From an uncultured Acidobacteriota bacterium (GTDB taxonomy: Bacteria > Acidobacteriota > Thermoanaerobaculia > Gp7-AA8), in contig CAWCBB010000016.1 in NCBI GenBank assembly GCA_963793695.1, positions 268,603 to 332,602 of the forward strand: a DNA stretch of 64,000 bases, in the 5' to 3' direction. Made by a program: the position numbers and the translations under genes. Below the pieces are notes generated by a model, which worked only from the letters and a program-made list of their open reading frames with translations, made no database searches and was not told the DNA's origin. Of the stretch, positions 7,420 to 62,432 are shown in pieces; within the stretch, counting starts at the first letter, position 1, and the number at the start of each line of letters is the position of its first letter.

Positions 7420-7429
7420 CGCAGGGGGC

Positions 7430-7510
<81 letters not shown>

Positions 7511-7518
7511 AGTTCGAG

Positions 7519-7935
7519 CTAATCCAGAGGGCGGAGGTCCCGGCGCGCCTTGCGCTTCGGCGCCGCCTCCTCCTGCTTCCTTGCCTGCCGCGAGAGATAG
7601 CGAATCAACCCGTTCAAGAGTTGCCCCACGCGAGCAGCATCGTCATCGAGTCGCTTGGCGGATGCTGGCTCGATGAACCTGAGCCGTCGCGCCATTTCGA
7701 GCTGTGTTTCTAACTCGAGCAGAGAACCTCGAGCACGAAAGACGAACTGCCGCTGGTCCCGGTACGAAAATCGCCCCATCGCTTCGGCGACATTCGACGG
7801 GATCGAGACGGCGGCTGACCTCATCTGATCCGAGAGGGCACGCGCCTCGCGATTCGGGAAAGACCGGACGGTCTCGAAGACGCAAATCGAGAAATCGATG
7901 GCTGCCTGCCAAGCTTTCAAGTCTCGGTAGTTCAT
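7519..7935 (-). CDS. Four helix bundle protein (23S rRNA IVS protein / Avd-like family)
   Basis: MNYRDLKAWQAA, LSDQMRSAAVSIPSNVAEAMGR, ARGSLLELETQLE match the family consensus; start taken at MNY rather than 8022. Confidence 0.92.
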   Translation of the reverse strand: MNYRDLKAWQAAIDFSICVFETVRSFPNREARALSDQMRSAAVSIPSNVAEAMGRFSYRDQRQFVFRARGSLLELETQLEMARRLRFIEPASAKRLDDDAARVGQLLNGLIRYLSRQARKQEEAAPKRKARRDLRPLD

Positions 7936-8026
7936 TATCTGTCGATGCCGAGGCAAGCGACCGACAGCATTCGGGTGGGGCCATGGATTGTACCTCGGCT
8001 TGCGACCTACTCGTGACAGCAAACGC

Positions 8027-8112
8027 GGAGAACGGAGAACGGAGAACGCAGAACGCAGAACGCAAAACGGGGAACGGAGAAACGGGGAACGAGAACGGAG
8101 ACGGAGAACGGC
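8027..8112. repeat. Tandem heptamer array (GGAGAAC)n, right inverted arm of the cassette
   Basis: GGAGAAC/GCAGAAC/GGGGAAC units, reverse complement of the left arm; ends at the stop codon at 8113. Confidence 0.9.
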
Positions 8113-24974: not shown

Positions 24975-25344
24975 GACCTCAGACCTCAGACCTCAGACCT
25001 CAGGCCTCAGACCTCAGGCCTCAGGCTACGCAGGCAATGCAGAATGCAGAATGCAGAATGAAATCGCCTTCATGTCGGTGGCGACCGGAGCGGAGAGCGG
25101 CGCTTCGCACCGCACTCCAAAGAGGCGAATCTCGCGGCTGTACCGCTGGCAAGGACGTGATGAGCCGAGAGGCGCTGCCCTCAGTACGAGCGTGCGCCTG
25201 GCGTTTTGGAGTGCGGCGCCCGCAGGCGCCGCTTTCATGTTCCGGGCTTTCTGCTTCGATTCAACATCCGAGGCCTGAGGCCTGAGGCCTGAGGCCTGGG
25301 GCCTGGGGTCTGGGGTCTGGGGTCTGGAGTCTGCGGTCTGGGCT
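24975..25344. repeat. Composite intergenic element: (GACCTCA)n arm, (AATGCAG)n array, TTTGGAGTGCG-type REP doublet, inverted (TGAGGCC/TGGGGTC)n arm
   Basis: Arms at 24975-25026 and 25270-25344; AATGCAG x3 at about 25036-25059; REPs AGAGCGGCG..CCGCACTCCAAA (25094-25121) and TTTGGAGTGCGGCG..CGCCGCTTT (25205-25235). Confidence 0.85.
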
Positions 25345-34434: not shown

Positions 34435-35274
34435 ATGGTGGTGAGCACGATCTTCGCCCCCGAGCGGCGCTCGCGGCTCGCCGCGATCTTCCCGCCGAAC
34501 GTCTCGATCCGGAAGCTCGTGATGCCCGTCGAGCACGGCGGATGGGGGATCCTTCTCGAGCCGATCGTCCTGGGGCTCGTCGCCGCGCCGTCCCGCGGCG
34601 GCTTTCTCGTTGCGCTCGCGGCCGTGGCGGCGTTCTTCGCCCGCCAGCCGCTCAAGATCGCGCTCGTGGATCGGACGCGCGGGAAGAGCTACCCGCGAAC
34701 GCGCGTGGCTCTGGCGACGGCGCTTCTCATCGCGCTCGCGGGCGCCGCCGCGTTCGCCCTCGCCGTCGCGGTGGCCGGGTGGGCGCTCGCGATTCCCCTC
34801 GCCGTCGCGGCCCCCCTCGCCCTCGTTCAGATCGTCTACGACGCGCGCAATGACAGTCGGAGGCTCCTGCCCGAGCTCTCGGGAGCGATCGCGATGAGCG
34901 GCGTGGTCGCGAGCATCGCGCTCGCGGACGGCGCTGCGCTCGCGGCCGCCGCGGCGCTCTGGGCGGTCATGCTCGGCCGCGCGATTCCCGCGATCCTCTA
35001 CATCCGCGCGCGCGTTCTCGGCGAGAGGACCGGAGCGGCGTTCGGCCCGTGGCCGGTCGCCTCCCACCTCGTCGCGCTCGGCGGCGGGATCGCCCTCTAC
35101 GCATCCGGGATCGCTCCTCTCGTGGTCCCGATCGCCTTCGCGGTTCTGCTCGCGCGCTGCGCGGTCGGCGTCTCCCCCTTGCGGAAGGCCGCGTCCGCGC
35201 GCCGCGTCGGCTTCACCGAGATCGGGTACGGGACAGCGACCATCCTCGCGATCGCGATCGCGCACGCGGCGTAA
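34435..35274 (+). CDS. YwiC-like membrane protein
   Basis: PVEHGGWG, RQPL, C-terminal G..EIGY; very hydrophobic; start uncertain. Confidence 0.72.
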   Translation: MVVSTIFAPERRSRLAAIFPPNVSIRKLVMPVEHGGWGILLEPIVLGLVAAPSRGGFLVALAAVAAFFARQPLKIALVDRTRGKSYPRTRVALATALLIALAGAAAFALAVAVAGWALAIPLAVAAPLALVQIVYDARNDSRRLLPELSGAIAMSGVVASIALADGAALAAAAALWAVMLGRAIPAILYIRARVLGERTGAAFGPWPVASHLVALGGGIALYASGIAPLVVPIAFAVLLARCAVGVSPLRKAASARRVGFTEIGYGTATILAIAIAHAA

Positions 35275-35437
35275 CCGTTCTCCGCTCTCCGTTTGCCGTT
35301 CTCCGTTCTCCCGTTCGCTTCGCCTTCTCACGGTCCCATGTACATGCTGGACGAATAGCGGTTTCTCGGCAAGGGAACGGCGGCCAGAACGGAGAACGGA
35401 GAACGGACGAACGGACAACGGAGAACGCTGCGCGCCG
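35275..35437. repeat. Inverted heptamer arrays (GTTCTCC)n...(GGAGAAC)n around a non-coding core of about 60 nt between convergent stops
   Basis: ccgttctccgctctccgtttgccgttctccgttctcc ... cagaacggagaacggagaacggacgaacggacaacggagaacg; same unit as 7430-8112. Confidence 0.85.
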
Positions 35438-36689
35438 CTACTCGTATCGCACGGCTTCGGCGGGGGAGATCCGTGCGGCGCGGGCCGAGGGAAGGAGCGT
35501 CGAGAGGAACGAGACGCCGACGGCGAAGAGTCCGACGATCAGGACGTCGCGCCACCGCGTCACGAACGGAATCGACGAGACGAAATAGACCTCGGCGATC
35601 TCCGGTCCGAACGAGACCAGCTCGTAGCGGGTGATCACCCAGTTCGTCACGACGCCGAGGAGGATGCCCAGCGCCGGTGCCGAAAAGGCCGACGAGCGTG
35701 CCGTAGTAGACGAAGATGCGGCGGATGAGCCCGCGGTCGCTCCCCATCGAGAGGAGGATGCCGATCTCCTTCCGCTTCTCGTGAACCGTCATGATGAGCG
35801 TGGACACGATGTTGAACGTCGAGACGAAGACGATCAGGCCGATGACGATGAAGAGGACGAGCTGCTGGATTTTCAGGAGACGGAAGAGCTGCTCGTTCAT
35901 CTCGCGCCAGTCGGTGACGGCGAATTCGCTGCCGGCCTTCCGGCGGATGAGCGACACCATCTCGGCAATGCGATCGGGGGTGTCGATCTTGATCTCGATC
36001 AGGTTCGATTTCCCCTCGGTCTGAAGGAGCTCCTGGGCCGCCGGGAGCGACATGAAGACCCAGCGGGAGTCGAACTCGAAAAAGCCGGTGTCGAAAACGT
36101 TCGTCACCACGAACGAGGACGAGCGCGGGAGCAGAGTCCCCTCTTCCTGAGAGGGGACGGTGAGGATCACCGGCGAACCGACCGAAACCTGCAGCTTCTT
36201 CGCGAGCCAGCTGCCGACGGCCACGCCGGCGGCGCCGTCGCCCGTCGCGAACGCCGCCTTCCCCGCGATCTTCGCGATCATCGCCGACTCGCGCGCTCGA
36301 GTCGGCTCGATCCCCTTGAGCATGATCTGCTCGCCGGTCGCGTGGAGCTCCGAGGTGATGAGCGCCTGCTGGAAGACGACCGGGGACGCGTCGACGACGC
36401 CGGGGATCCGCCCGAGCTCCGCCGCGAGCTCCGGCGTGTCGCGGATGCTCCCGCCGAGCGAGTAGACGAAGATCTCCGCGTTTCCTCCGAGGAGCTTCTC
36501 CTGGAGGTCTTCGCGGTATCCGGTCATGAGCGCCATCGAGATGACGAGGGCCATGACGCCGATGACGAGGCCGAGGACCGATACGAGGCCGACGGCCGAT
36601 ATGAGCCTGTCGGCGGGGCGCTTGAGGTAGCGCCAGGCGATTTCGAGCGGCAGATTCACGATGCGGCCGGTCCCGGGCGACGCGCTCAT
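35438..36689 (-). CDS. LolC/E (FtsX-like) ABC transporter permease; frameshift near 35685
   Basis: IAWRYL, LVISMALMTGY, VSTFNIVSTLIMTV.EK.KEIGIL.SMG, PSARAARISPAEAVRYE. Confidence 0.9.
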
Positions 36690-37783
36690 CCCTGGCGCCC
36701 GGACCGCTCCTCGATCATCCGGAGAAACTCGGAGAACACGTGAAACGAGTCGTGCGGCCCCGGCGCTGCTTCCGGATGATACTGCACGGCGATCAGCGGG
36801 TCCTTCCGGGAGCGGAAGCCTTCGACGGTCCCATCGTTGAGGTTCACGTGCGTGAACTCGATGTCCGAGGAGGGAAGGGTGTCGCCGTCGACGGAGAAGC
36901 CGTGGTTCTGGGCGGTGATCTCGACCTTGCCGCTGTCGATCTCCCGGACCGGATGGTTCCCGCCGTGGTGGCCGAACTTCAGCTTGTAGGTCCTGCCTCC
37001 CAGAGCGATGCCGAGGAGCTGATGCCCCAGACAGATCCCGAGGATCGGGGTGCGGCCGATCAGCTGGCGGATGTTTTCCTGCGCGTAGGTGACCGGCTCC
37101 GGATCCCCGGGACCATTCGAGAGAAGCACCCCGTCGAATTTCTTCGAGAGGAGGTCGGACGCGGGCGTCTTCGCGGGGAAGACGGTCACCTCGCATCCTT
37201 CGATCTGGAGGCGGCGGAGAATGTCGCGCTTGACGCCGAAATCGTAGACGGCGATCCGCCGCCGGGCGTTCCCTTCGGCGGGAATCGAATAGGGCTCCGA
37301 GGTCGTGACTTTCTGGACGAGATCCAGGCCGGCCATCGAGGGCGCCGCCTTGATCTCGCGGACGATCTCGTCGAGGGGGCGATCGTCGGTGGTGATCATG
37401 CCCATCATCGAGCCGTGCATGCGGAGCTTCCGCGTCACGGCGCGCGTGTCGATCCCGCGGATCGCCGGGACTCCGTGGCGGCCGAGATACTCGCCGAGCC
37501 CGACCGGCGCATCGGGATGGCTGACCGGAGCCGTCAGCTCGCGCACCGCGAAGCCCGCCACCTGAGGGCGTGCGCTCTGCTCGGCGAGCGCTTCCACGCC
37601 GTAGTTCCCCATGTGGGGATACGTCATGACTACGATCTGGAACCGGTACGAGGGATCGGTCGCGATCTCCTGGTATCCCGTCATCGACGTGTTGAAGACG
37701 ACTTCCCCGATCGCGGGACTGGACGAGCCGAACGACTCCCCTTCGAACAGGGAGCCGTCTTCGAGAATGAGGCGGGCGATCAT
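36686..37783 (-). CDS. carA: Carbamoyl-phosphate synthase small subunit
   Basis: LILEDG, GEVVFNTSMTGYQE..TDPSY, SNGPGDP, GICLGHQ, QNHG, QYHPEAAPGPHD. Confidence 0.97.
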   Translation of the reverse strand: MIARLILEDGSLFEGESFGSSSPAIGEVVFNTSMTGYQEIATDPSYRFQIVVMTYPHMGNYGVEALAEQSARPQVAGFAVRELTAPVSHPDAPVGLGEYLGRHGVPAIRGIDTRAVTRKLRMHGSMMGMITTDDRPLDEIVREIKAAPSMAGLDLVQKVTTSEPYSIPAEGNARRRIAVYDFGVKRDILRRLQIEGCEVTVFPAKTPASDLLSKKFDGVLLSNGPGDPEPVTYAQENIRQLIGRTPILGICLGHQLLGIALGGRTYKLKFGHHGGNHPVREIDSGKVEITAQNHGFSVDGDTLPSSDIEFTHVNLNDGTVEGFRSRKDPLIAVQYHPEAAPGPHDSFHVFSEFLRMIEERSGRQG

Positions 37784-41222: not shown

Positions 41223-41669
41223 ATGATCGCCGTCGACATCTCCGGCCCCGCGATTCCGCGCCTGACGCGCAAGGAGATCGAAGCCTTCGCGCGGAAGGTG
41301 CTGCGCGCGATCGAGCGCGAGCGGGGGACGACCTTCGTGCCGACCGACGTCTCGCTCGTCTTTCTGAACGATCGCGCGATGGCGGATCTCAACCGCCGCT
41401 ACCGCGGCAGACGGAGGACCACGGACGTCCTGACCTTCGCCGGCGAGGGCCTCGAGGACGTCCCCGGAGAGCGCCCTCTCGGGGACATCGCGATCTCGAT
41501 CGACCAGGCGAAGCGTCAGGCGAAGGCGGAAGGTCACGCGCTCGCGACCGAGGTGCGGTACCTGATCCTCCACGGCATGCTCCACGCGTTCGGCCACGAC
41601 CACGAGACCGACGCGGGAGAGATGAACGCGCTGGAGATGAAGGTCCGAGGCAGGGTCGGACTTCGCTGA
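41223..41669 (+). CDS. ybeY: rRNA maturation endoribonuclease YbeY
   Basis: LN..YRG....TDVLTF, LGDI.IS, HGMLHAFGHDH. Confidence 0.95.
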   Translation: MIAVDISGPAIPRLTRKEIEAFARKVLRAIERERGTTFVPTDVSLVFLNDRAMADLNRRYRGRRRTTDVLTFAGEGLEDVPGERPLGDIAISIDQAKRQAKAEGHALATEVRYLILHGMLHAFGHDHETDAGEMNALEMKVRGRVGLR

Positions 41670-41702
41670 CGGAGAACGGAGAACGGAGCACGGAGAACGG
41701 CC
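41670..41702. repeat. Single (GGAGAAC)n heptamer array filling the gap between convergent ybeY and phoH stops
   Basis: cggagaac ggagaac ggagcac ggagaac ggcc then CTA. Confidence 0.85.
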
Positions 41703-62327: not shown

Positions 62328-62432
62328 CATTGCAGATTGCAGAATGCAGATTGCAGATTGAGGGGAGAGTTCGTGCGCGGCGTTGCGGCCGCGCCGTGCC
62401 TTCAATCTGCAATCTGCGATCTGCAATCTGCA
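62328..62432. repeat. Inverted heptamer arrays (ATTGCAG)n...(CAATCTG)n around a GC hairpin core of about 40 nt
   Basis: cattgcagattgcagaatgcagattgcagattg ... caatctgcaatctgcgatctgcaatctgcattc. Confidence 0.88.

Follow-up and report, generated by a model that had tools for sequence, protein, structure and literature searches.

A gene-less hairpin of inverted heptamer arrays between convergent genes of an uncultured Acidobacteriota bacterium and its probable kinship with PF05635 cassettes

Positions 35275–35437 of the 64-kb window analysed here (the whole stretch C16:268603–332602 of the source genome, labelled G000; labels of the type L095 denote loci or contigs compared with it) form one hairpin, comprising approximately six copies of CCGTTCT, a 69-nt core and approximately six copies of AGAACGG. 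We consider it probable, if well short of certain, that this hairpin is a gene-less palindrome armed with (GTTCTCC)n arrays that belongs to one element lineage with cassettes carrying a PF05635 four-helix-bundle gene, and that it sits in a gap of fast turnover. The complete form of the element would hold the PF05635 gene in its loop, as at 7429–8111 of the same window. The copy at 35275–35437 would have been gained in the recent ancestry of this lineage, displacing a REP-like palindrome, and may have originated either as a cassette that later lost its whole gene or as an arm-plus-loop copy made without the gene. The hairpin may since have been kept as selfish or neutral DNA, with its arrays presumably growing and shrinking by slippage until they touch coding sequences.

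The hairpin occupies the entire 163-base gap between the stop codons of two convergent genes. These are the TAA (35272–35274, plus strand) of a YwiC-like membrane protein gene (about 34435–35274; identified by translation and by Pfam PF14256, E = 1e-20) and the TAG (35438–35440, minus strand, CTA on the plus strand) of a LolC/E-like FtsX permease gene (35438–36689; identified by Pfam, translation and metagenome contigs). The array begins 1–3 nt past the YwiC-like stop. The left arm (35275–35316) holds 5.9 copies of CCGTTCT, equivalent to the GTTCTCC unit, by TRF, pattern search and folds, and base-pairs in predicted folds with the right arm (35386–35427), which holds 5.9 copies of AGAACGG, equivalent to the GGAGAAC unit, by TRF. 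An earlier note on this DNA had described inverted heptamer arms spanning the two convergent stops, and sequence, TRF, Pfam and folds all bear this out. It had also called the arms identical, which is correct for the unit but not for the arms as copies (80% matches on the left, 88% on the right). Similarly, its core of about 60 nt of non-coding sequence does lack any ORF or gene, but measures 69 nt between the TRF boundaries (35317–35385; delimited by sequence, core comparisons and folds). The outer portions of this core are decayed repeat units that still pair, and only its centre of about 30 nt, which includes the palindrome CATGTACATG at 35337–35346, is unique sequence; the core as a whole is unique within G000. 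A 10-nt linker, CTGCGCGCCG (35428–35437; defined by sequence and relatives' spacers), connects the right arm to the LolE stop. By the usual description of heptamer arrays (at least three units), the hairpin has 5.9 units in each arm, in inverted orientation, with a 69-nt spacer and an intergenic, dispersed occurrence. A double-heptamer pattern search returned 17 occurrences in the 64-kb window versus 0.04 expected, and the full spacer folds as a single hairpin (RNA, −86.7 kcal/mol, z = −7.5; DNA, z = −5.7). The sequencing runs found to contain this organism (X1–X9, from soil and permafrost) are all DNA metagenomes, and in their contigs the copy number of the right arm differs among strains by whole units: a contig of X1 carries a 7-nt insertion, GAACGGC, at 35422, and X9 has a shorter, variant right arm.

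The LolC/E-like permease gene contains a 1-base frame error near 35673 (35660–35690) in the G000 assembly. Contigs of three other metagenomes lack the extra base, and the repaired 416-aa protein is 99% identical to a public full-length relative; the base is probably an assembly error, and its absence from the other contigs places the true permease stop at 35438. A minus-strand ORF through the right arm (35328–37196) was rejected as an artefact of the same frame error.

A complete cassette lies 27 kb from the gene-less hairpin and shares its unit and polarity. Its left arm (7429–7509; 11.3 copies of CGTTCTC, TRF), of the same unit family as 35275–35437, and its right arm (8026–8111; 12.4 copies of CGGAGAA, TRF) enclose a minus-strand gene (7519–7935) whose 138-aa product matches the PF05635 and TIGR02436 four-helix-bundle families in Pfam and TIGR profile searches, confirming the four-helix-bundle cassette anticipated from the sequence. 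This gene is the sole cargo, and the cassette encodes no transposase. The nearest solved structure of its protein is 2GSC (XCC0516), an entry of five chains, and the protein also matches NF033474 (Avd) with E = 2e-4; we take Avd, one studied PF05635 relative, to be an accessory factor of a reverse transcriptase. The single-arm version likewise reported earlier was recovered by TRF and Pfam at 41669–41700, where 4.6 copies of ACGGAGA fill the 33-nt convergent gap between the ybeY TGA and the phoH TAG. Two further palindromes of other units occur in the window, at 24975–25342, with (GACCTCA)/(GAGGTCT-like) arms plus an AATGCAG array and a core of about 250 nt, and at 62329–62432, with (ATTGCAG)/(CAATCTG) arms and a 42-nt core.

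The orthologous site of the cassette, between a Cys/Met-PLP enzyme gene and an M50-CBS protein gene, is represented in three further contigs (L308, L309 and L310) whose flank proteins are 77–86% identical to those of G000. The PF05635 gene is intact in G000. L308 carries a 266-nt hairpin with (CGTTCTT)4/(GAAGAAC)3 arms in which only the 3' third of the four-helix-bundle gene is left; its core encodes the last 42 residues of the cassette protein, in opposite orientation (BLASTP, 6e-13, 57% identity), and no target-site duplication was found there. L310 carries a gene-less, decayed hairpin of 97 nt, and in L309 a solo arm, (GAAGAAC)3, constitutes the 34-nt spacer. The identities of the flank proteins suggest the grouping (G000,(L308,(L309,L310))), under which the gene would most likely be ancestral at this site and have been removed by internal deletion. 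Through internal deletions, cassettes of this kind turn into hairpins with a truncated gene, into empty hairpins or into solo arms. The series of full, deleted and solo-arm forms proposed in the earlier note is therefore seen at the orthologous site of cassette 7429–8111, but not at 35275–35437.

Homology between short cores and four-helix-bundle genes, which the same proposal had led one to expect, did not materialise. The best four-helix-bundle HMM score of the core at 35317–35385 was 4.6 bits versus 13 bits in controls, a Smith–Waterman comparison of this core with the cassette interior gave z = −0.86, and HMM and DNA-level searches of 109 other short cores found no four-helix-bundle trace above control. 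Since the short core of L310 also lacks a remnant, a remnant-free core is no argument against cassette descent. One 273-nt core (C28:76197) gave a weak four-helix-bundle match with a local HMM (E = 0.003) that became noise with a broader HMM.

The association between PF05635 genes and inverted arrays extends well beyond this cassette. All seven PF05635 loci in G000 lie between inverted arrays, each of a different unit (period 6, 7 or 9), and their proteins are mutually 18–36% identical; array-enclosed genes number 6 of 3901 called and are mostly the PF05635 genes (Fisher, 1e-19). In samples of selected lineages, an inverted pair accompanies 43 of 60 PF05635 genes from 40 class relatives (one array or more lies beside 59 of the 60), 14 of 27 in a phylum-wide sample versus 0 of 49 control windows, and 33 of 75 across phyla (71 of 75 with any array). 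Protein and unit co-vary: identity of at least 60% is found in 14% of same-unit pairs versus 0.6% of different-unit pairs, and closely related proteins have units that are the same or one step different. Flanking genes are non-homologous in four of five closely related cassette pairs; the shared unit together with the unrelated flanks means that gene and arms move as one unit, being inherited and relocated together. The unit of one cassette, AAACCAG, occurs nowhere else in G000. At C2:400484–401350, a four-helix-bundle cassette with (GAAACCA) arms, a unit otherwise absent from the assembly, is partially duplicated in tandem, and at C9:6511–7072 and C9:10203–10852 there are decaying cassette copies with (GCTGATT)/(AATCAGC) arms and frameshifted four-helix-bundle genes.

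Array density also follows the gene. PF05635 copy numbers of 0, 0, 0, 4, 7, 8 and 14 in seven genomes correspond to 0.3, 0, 0, 4.0, 7.3, 11.9 and 14.2 period-7 arrays per 100 kb (Spearman 0.97, p = 2e-4, n = 7, a statistic that ignores kinship). Within the class, genomes without PF05635 have virtually no heptamer arrays: 818 kb from three PF05635-free relatives yielded a single period-7 array and not one inverted pair. In three PF05635-positive relatives, 4–14 arrays per 100 kb were counted away from cassettes, and one PF05635-free genome belongs to the same family as one of the positive relatives. A full-text literature search found no publication linking the PF05635 family to gene-less arrays.

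The G000 assembly (4.46 Mb, 67% GC, 68% complete), which the names of matching public proteins assign to the Thermoanaerobaculia, contains about 160–190 array-armed palindromes, with 187 inverted complementary pairs counted. Period-7 arrays predominate (374, versus 53 of period 6 and 82 of period 8) and fall into more than 20 unit families, of which (GTTCTCC)n is the largest with approximately 137 arrays. Core lengths of the 187 pairs have their mode at 25–100 nt and a second bump at 400–600 nt; this mode makes the empty form the common one. Polarity is fixed within each unit family (30/30 pairs for (GTTCTCC)n, and 21/21, 13/13 and 12/12 in others), and the termini past the arrays are conserved, as AGG/CGTTCTC...GAGAACG/CCT; in the AAAATGC family the inner arm ends are conserved. 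Fixed polarity and conserved termini favour copying by descent over independent origins. Most of the abundant families (AAAATGC, ACCTCAG, AAGTAGG and ACTCCTAG) have no cassette in this 68%-complete assembly, and the AACATTC cassette has the polarity opposite to that of the empty AACATTC hairpins.

Arms also enclose host genes, namely those for tRNA-Phe, tRNA-Gly, an RRM protein and a small membrane protein, and cassette decay alone does not account for these. The tRNA-Gly (C16:218948–219394) and tRNA-Phe (C1:369022–369414) genes are both flanked by inverted arrays of a single unit, (CGTTCTC)/(AACGGAG) for the former and an 8-mer for the latter, and such arms could form a helix about the tRNA precursor that resembles a processing stem. 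Paralogous small membrane-protein genes without a Pfam family lie inside inverted (CGGGCG)n hexamer arrays at C23:6188–6705 and C28:55006–55431; the same unit flanks a four-helix-bundle gene at C16:76656, and the membrane-protein genes are possibly a second type of cargo. A gene for a glycine-rich RRM_1 RNA-binding protein (C30:623925–624698) is located between inverted GC-rich hexamer arrays. No PDDEXK_3/GxxExxY cargo genes were found in G000. Rfam searches of 20 long cores identified two tRNAs and Acido-Lenti-1 motifs; matches to plant and animal miRNA families were dismissed as spurious products of long hairpins. Acido-Lenti-1 (RF01687, 35–39 bits, five copies) occurs in a cluster of tandem units of approximately 210 nt (L002, C16:131250–134100), each with a (CGTTCTC) array and the motif, bounded by long (AGAACGR) arrays.

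Possibly, the hairpin at 35275–35437 is a true non-autonomous element, copied in trans by the product of the resident same-unit PF05635 cassette, with a four-helix-bundle oligomer reading the heptamer array as an IS transposase does for MITEs. The unit and polarity shared with the cassette 27 kb away, the lack of arrays in PF05635-free genomes, the covariation of protein and unit, private units such as AAACCAG, which imply that the arms travel with the gene, and the fixed polarity and conserved termini that point to copying by descent all agree with it. We nevertheless rate this alternative as rather unlikely: we know of no catalytic activity in PF05635, most array families have no cassette here, and co-occurrence is also expected if the hairpins came first and the gene only settled in them. 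Moreover, G000 has 11 Y1_Tnp and two reverse-transcriptase matches, none of which is flanked by an array pair; within 1.2 kb of three of the Y1_Tnp loci there is one short array of an unrelated kind, in no case paired. The flanks of the hairpin, GCGTAA/CC and CG/CTGCGCGCCG, share no repeat that would represent a target-site duplication, and cores are not common to the copies, with 89 of 123 unique, including that of 35275–35437. The comparison with IS and MITE made in the earlier note holds for form, in that full and internally deleted versions have common terminal inverted sequences and the short versions are far commoner; it fails for mechanics, since a transposase and a target-site duplication are both lacking and the interiors of short copies are not conserved.

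Turning to the history of the site, relatives of 85–99% identity found via protein clusters were compared at the gap between the YwiC-like and LolE genes, and seven lineages with LolE proteins 88–99% identical display seven different states. In L095 the spacer measures 28 nt and includes a small GTAG-tagged REP-like palindrome, in L097 it measures 38 nt, and L312 has a direct 10-mer array flanked by two REP-like palindromes. L096 (3222–3361) bears a nested double hairpin with (TCGTTGA)n outer arms, (TTGTCTG)n inner arms and a 16-nt loop, which shows that one array-armed palindrome can sit within another. L313 bears a (GTTCTCC)n arm of the same polarity as in G000, followed by at least 190 nt to the contig end, with no four-helix-bundle remnant in the interior up to that end; neither L096 nor L313 has a target-site duplication. 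L093 and L094 (Logan contigs of the closest strain, LolE 98.8% identical) keep the REP-like palindrome and lack the YwiC–DinB genes, a strain-level deletion or replacement bounded by repeats. G000 has the 163-nt hairpin in place of the REP-like palindrome, with the linker CTGCGCGCCG standing where relatives have the GTAG-tagged palindrome. On these comparisons, the gap is a hot spot of repeat turnover and the G000 hairpin copy is lineage-specific. Logan contigs break at arrays, and no full alternative allele is visible in them. In genus-level relatives, YwiC-like orthologues (41–48% identity) are not syntenic with lolE, and only one of them has a hairpin, of another unit. Within the L313 element, positions 2788–2890 hold a dispersed repeat of approximately 100 nt with twin hairpins (GGCACGCCGGAGGCGTGCCAGAGGG), of which G000 has many copies (C6:230146, C30:638342 and others) at 80–87% identity. 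In L093 (3234–3347) and L094, the GTAG-REP palindrome comes after LolE, then unrelated sequence and an (AAGTAGG)-type arm abutting a DUF2203 gene.

Such turnover could also be read as the product of events in situ, the hairpin being a spacer microsatellite raised by slippage and made palindromic via template switching, with neither ancestry in nor dependence on a four-helix-bundle cassette. Whole-unit differences in arm copy number between strains, the decay of the inner units, as old arrays should show, the occurrence of other units in several of the seven states, and arrays that abut gene ends as if expanding until halted by selection are all in keeping with this. What makes it improbable is that independent origins would give random units and polarities, whereas one unit with one polarity recurs through the approximately 137 arrays and 30/30 pairs of the (GTTCTCC)n family; additionally, the termini are conserved, arrays are virtually absent from the three PF05635-free relatives, and the arms and unique core centre of about 30 nt have no counterpart in the 28–38-nt spacers of relatives. 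Kinship with the PF05635 cassettes is the reading that we prefer.

The position of the hairpin exactly between two convergent stops, the high stability of its stem and its replacement of a small GC-rich palindrome that probably serves such a role in relatives would all suit a hairpin selected by the host as a bidirectional terminator or mRNA 3'-end stabiliser for the ywiC-like and lolE-like genes. Genome-wide data make this a poor candidate. Most arrays begin −2 to +5 nt from a neighbouring stop codon, but hairpins adjoin start codons as often as stops and occur in all gene-orientation contexts, divergent and tandem included, at approximately background proportions, with no preference for convergent pairs across the genome; the tie to convergent stops drawn in the earlier note is not supported. 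Unpaired arrays, too, are oriented as the gene-facing arm of a pair would be, start or stop alike; the idea that array polarity follows the direction of transcription was rejected, as polarity depends only on the side on which the neighbouring gene lies. Array scanning of the genome, as had been proposed, returned fixed polarity and arrays near stops, but neither an orientation preference nor core homology. At the site itself, no terminator-like sequence was detected within 35100–35600, no U-tract lies behind the stem, and the site is unconserved even at 99% protein identity. As a cassette-derived or cassette-related copy, the hairpin would give each of the two convergent transcripts a stem of approximately 45 bp at its 3' end. 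If the intervening sequences of 23S rRNA are a guide, RNase III would cut such a stem or the stem would form a barrier at the 3' end, and the hairpin would act at most as a long 3'-end stem of this kind. Among stop codons within 20 nt of arrays (n = 215), 95 are TGA, 83 TAG and 37 TAA, an enrichment of TAA and TAG relative to the whole genome (TGA 2491, TAG 1076, TAA 324; TAG 28%, TAA 8%).

A REP/REPIN variant mobilised by a RAYT (Y1 transposase), with the GTAG by the arm as its REP tag, is largely refuted and very improbable: the right arm does end at CTAC (minus-strand GTAG) in the three window cases reported (8113, 35438 and 41703), G000 has its Y1_Tnp matches, and relatives carry GTAG-tagged REP palindromes at the orthologous site, but G precedes TAG beside arrays no more often than in the background (48/83, 58%, versus 718/1076, 67%, genome-wide, where C precedes 17%), GTAG lies within 16 nt in only 20 of 278 outer array flanks, arrays flank no Y1_Tnp gene, and at 35275–35437 the arm displaces a REP rather than being one. 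REPs are single palindromes of 20–40 nt with a conserved tag, served by a Y1 transposase. The array-armed palindromes resemble REPs and REPINs as dispersed intergenic hairpin repeats that often touch stop codons, and relatives have a REP-like palindrome at the same site; unlike REPs, their stems are tandem arrays, with no tag and no RAYT association.

Among described systems, the intervening sequences (IVS) of 23S rRNA offer one of the closest parallels. They comprise ORF-bearing forms in Coxiella burnetii and Leptospira, where S23p corresponds to PF05635, and short ORF-less forms in Salmonella and Yersinia. Like the elements considered here, they have a long inverted-repeat stem around either a PF05635 ORF or a short loop, and full and ORF-less forms coexist. 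The Coxiella IVS has a PF05635 ORF, a 28-bp stem cleaved within by RNase III, and tandem GACAGAT heptamers that vary between strains (Warrier et al. 2016, PMC4990558). In contrast to IVS, the hairpin at 35275–35437 lies between protein-coding genes rather than in helix 9, 25 or 45 of 23S rRNA, both arms of the elements of the G000 type are whole arrays of 6–12 units, gene-less copies number in the hundreds per genome, and the stem is a predicted one, with RNase III cleavage known from the Coxiella IVS.

The GGGAATC arrays of Xanthomonas are likewise dispersed intergenic heptamers, often in inverted pairs and capable of forming stem-loops, with 70–75 convergent (inverted) pairs per genome in all gene-orientation classes (Rehm et al. 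2015, PMC4692102). That study treated the one G-rich unit as a G-quadruplex former and made no link to a gene family (PMC4692102), whereas G000 has more than 20 unit families, mostly unable to form G4 and tied to PF05635 cassettes. Xanthomonas campestris also encodes a PF05635 protein, XCC0516 (PDB 2GSC). Geobacter metallireducens has class 2 sites, TCTCCGTS[Y] in three copies with 21 opposite-strand pairs, and class 3 sites, MTYCTGA in five copies, and the authors explained its paired sites as targets bound by global regulators yet to be identified (Aklujkar et al. 2009, PMC2700814). The class 2 sites resemble the present arrays in forming opposite-strand pairs at variable distance, and TCTCCGT is a rotation of the unit at 35275–35437. 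They differ from those of G000 in having units of 8–9 nt in only three copies, with no cargo or decay series reported (PMC2700814). The cyanobacterial STRR heptanucleotide repeats of Calothrix and Nostoc, as cited in PMC4692102, include several tandem-heptamer families between the genes of one genome and are presented there as mainly direct arrays, with few pairs seen in Nostoc; unlike for the G000 elements, that account describes no decay series or cargo gene.

To our knowledge, tandem heptamer repeats have been recognised as over-represented in bacterial genomes since 2007 without an explanation, and where rRNA intervening sequences come from and what their small ORF does have been open questions for 30 years. 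We tentatively propose, as a possibility on which we would not yet rely, that PF05635 four-helix-bundle proteins form a single widespread system with tandem-heptamer arrays, each making up one half of it. Each cassette would bring its own unit of 6–9 nt, and the oligomeric protein would recognise the arrays and promote their copying or retention. Most of the excess heptamer repeats of Xanthomonas, cyanobacteria, Geobacter and Acidobacteriota may then be gene-less debris or satellites of cassettes, and 23S rRNA intervening sequences may be cassette copies that landed in rRNA. On a practical level, short-read assemblies break at these array hairpins, which also give rise to spurious ORFs and to frame errors where genes end. 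New here are a deletion series at one orthologous site, which ties a PF05635 cassette to empty hairpins and solo arms, and a contrast within one class, in which genomes without a PF05635 gene are also without arrays. Together, the series and the contrast make the partnership between protein and repeat directly testable.
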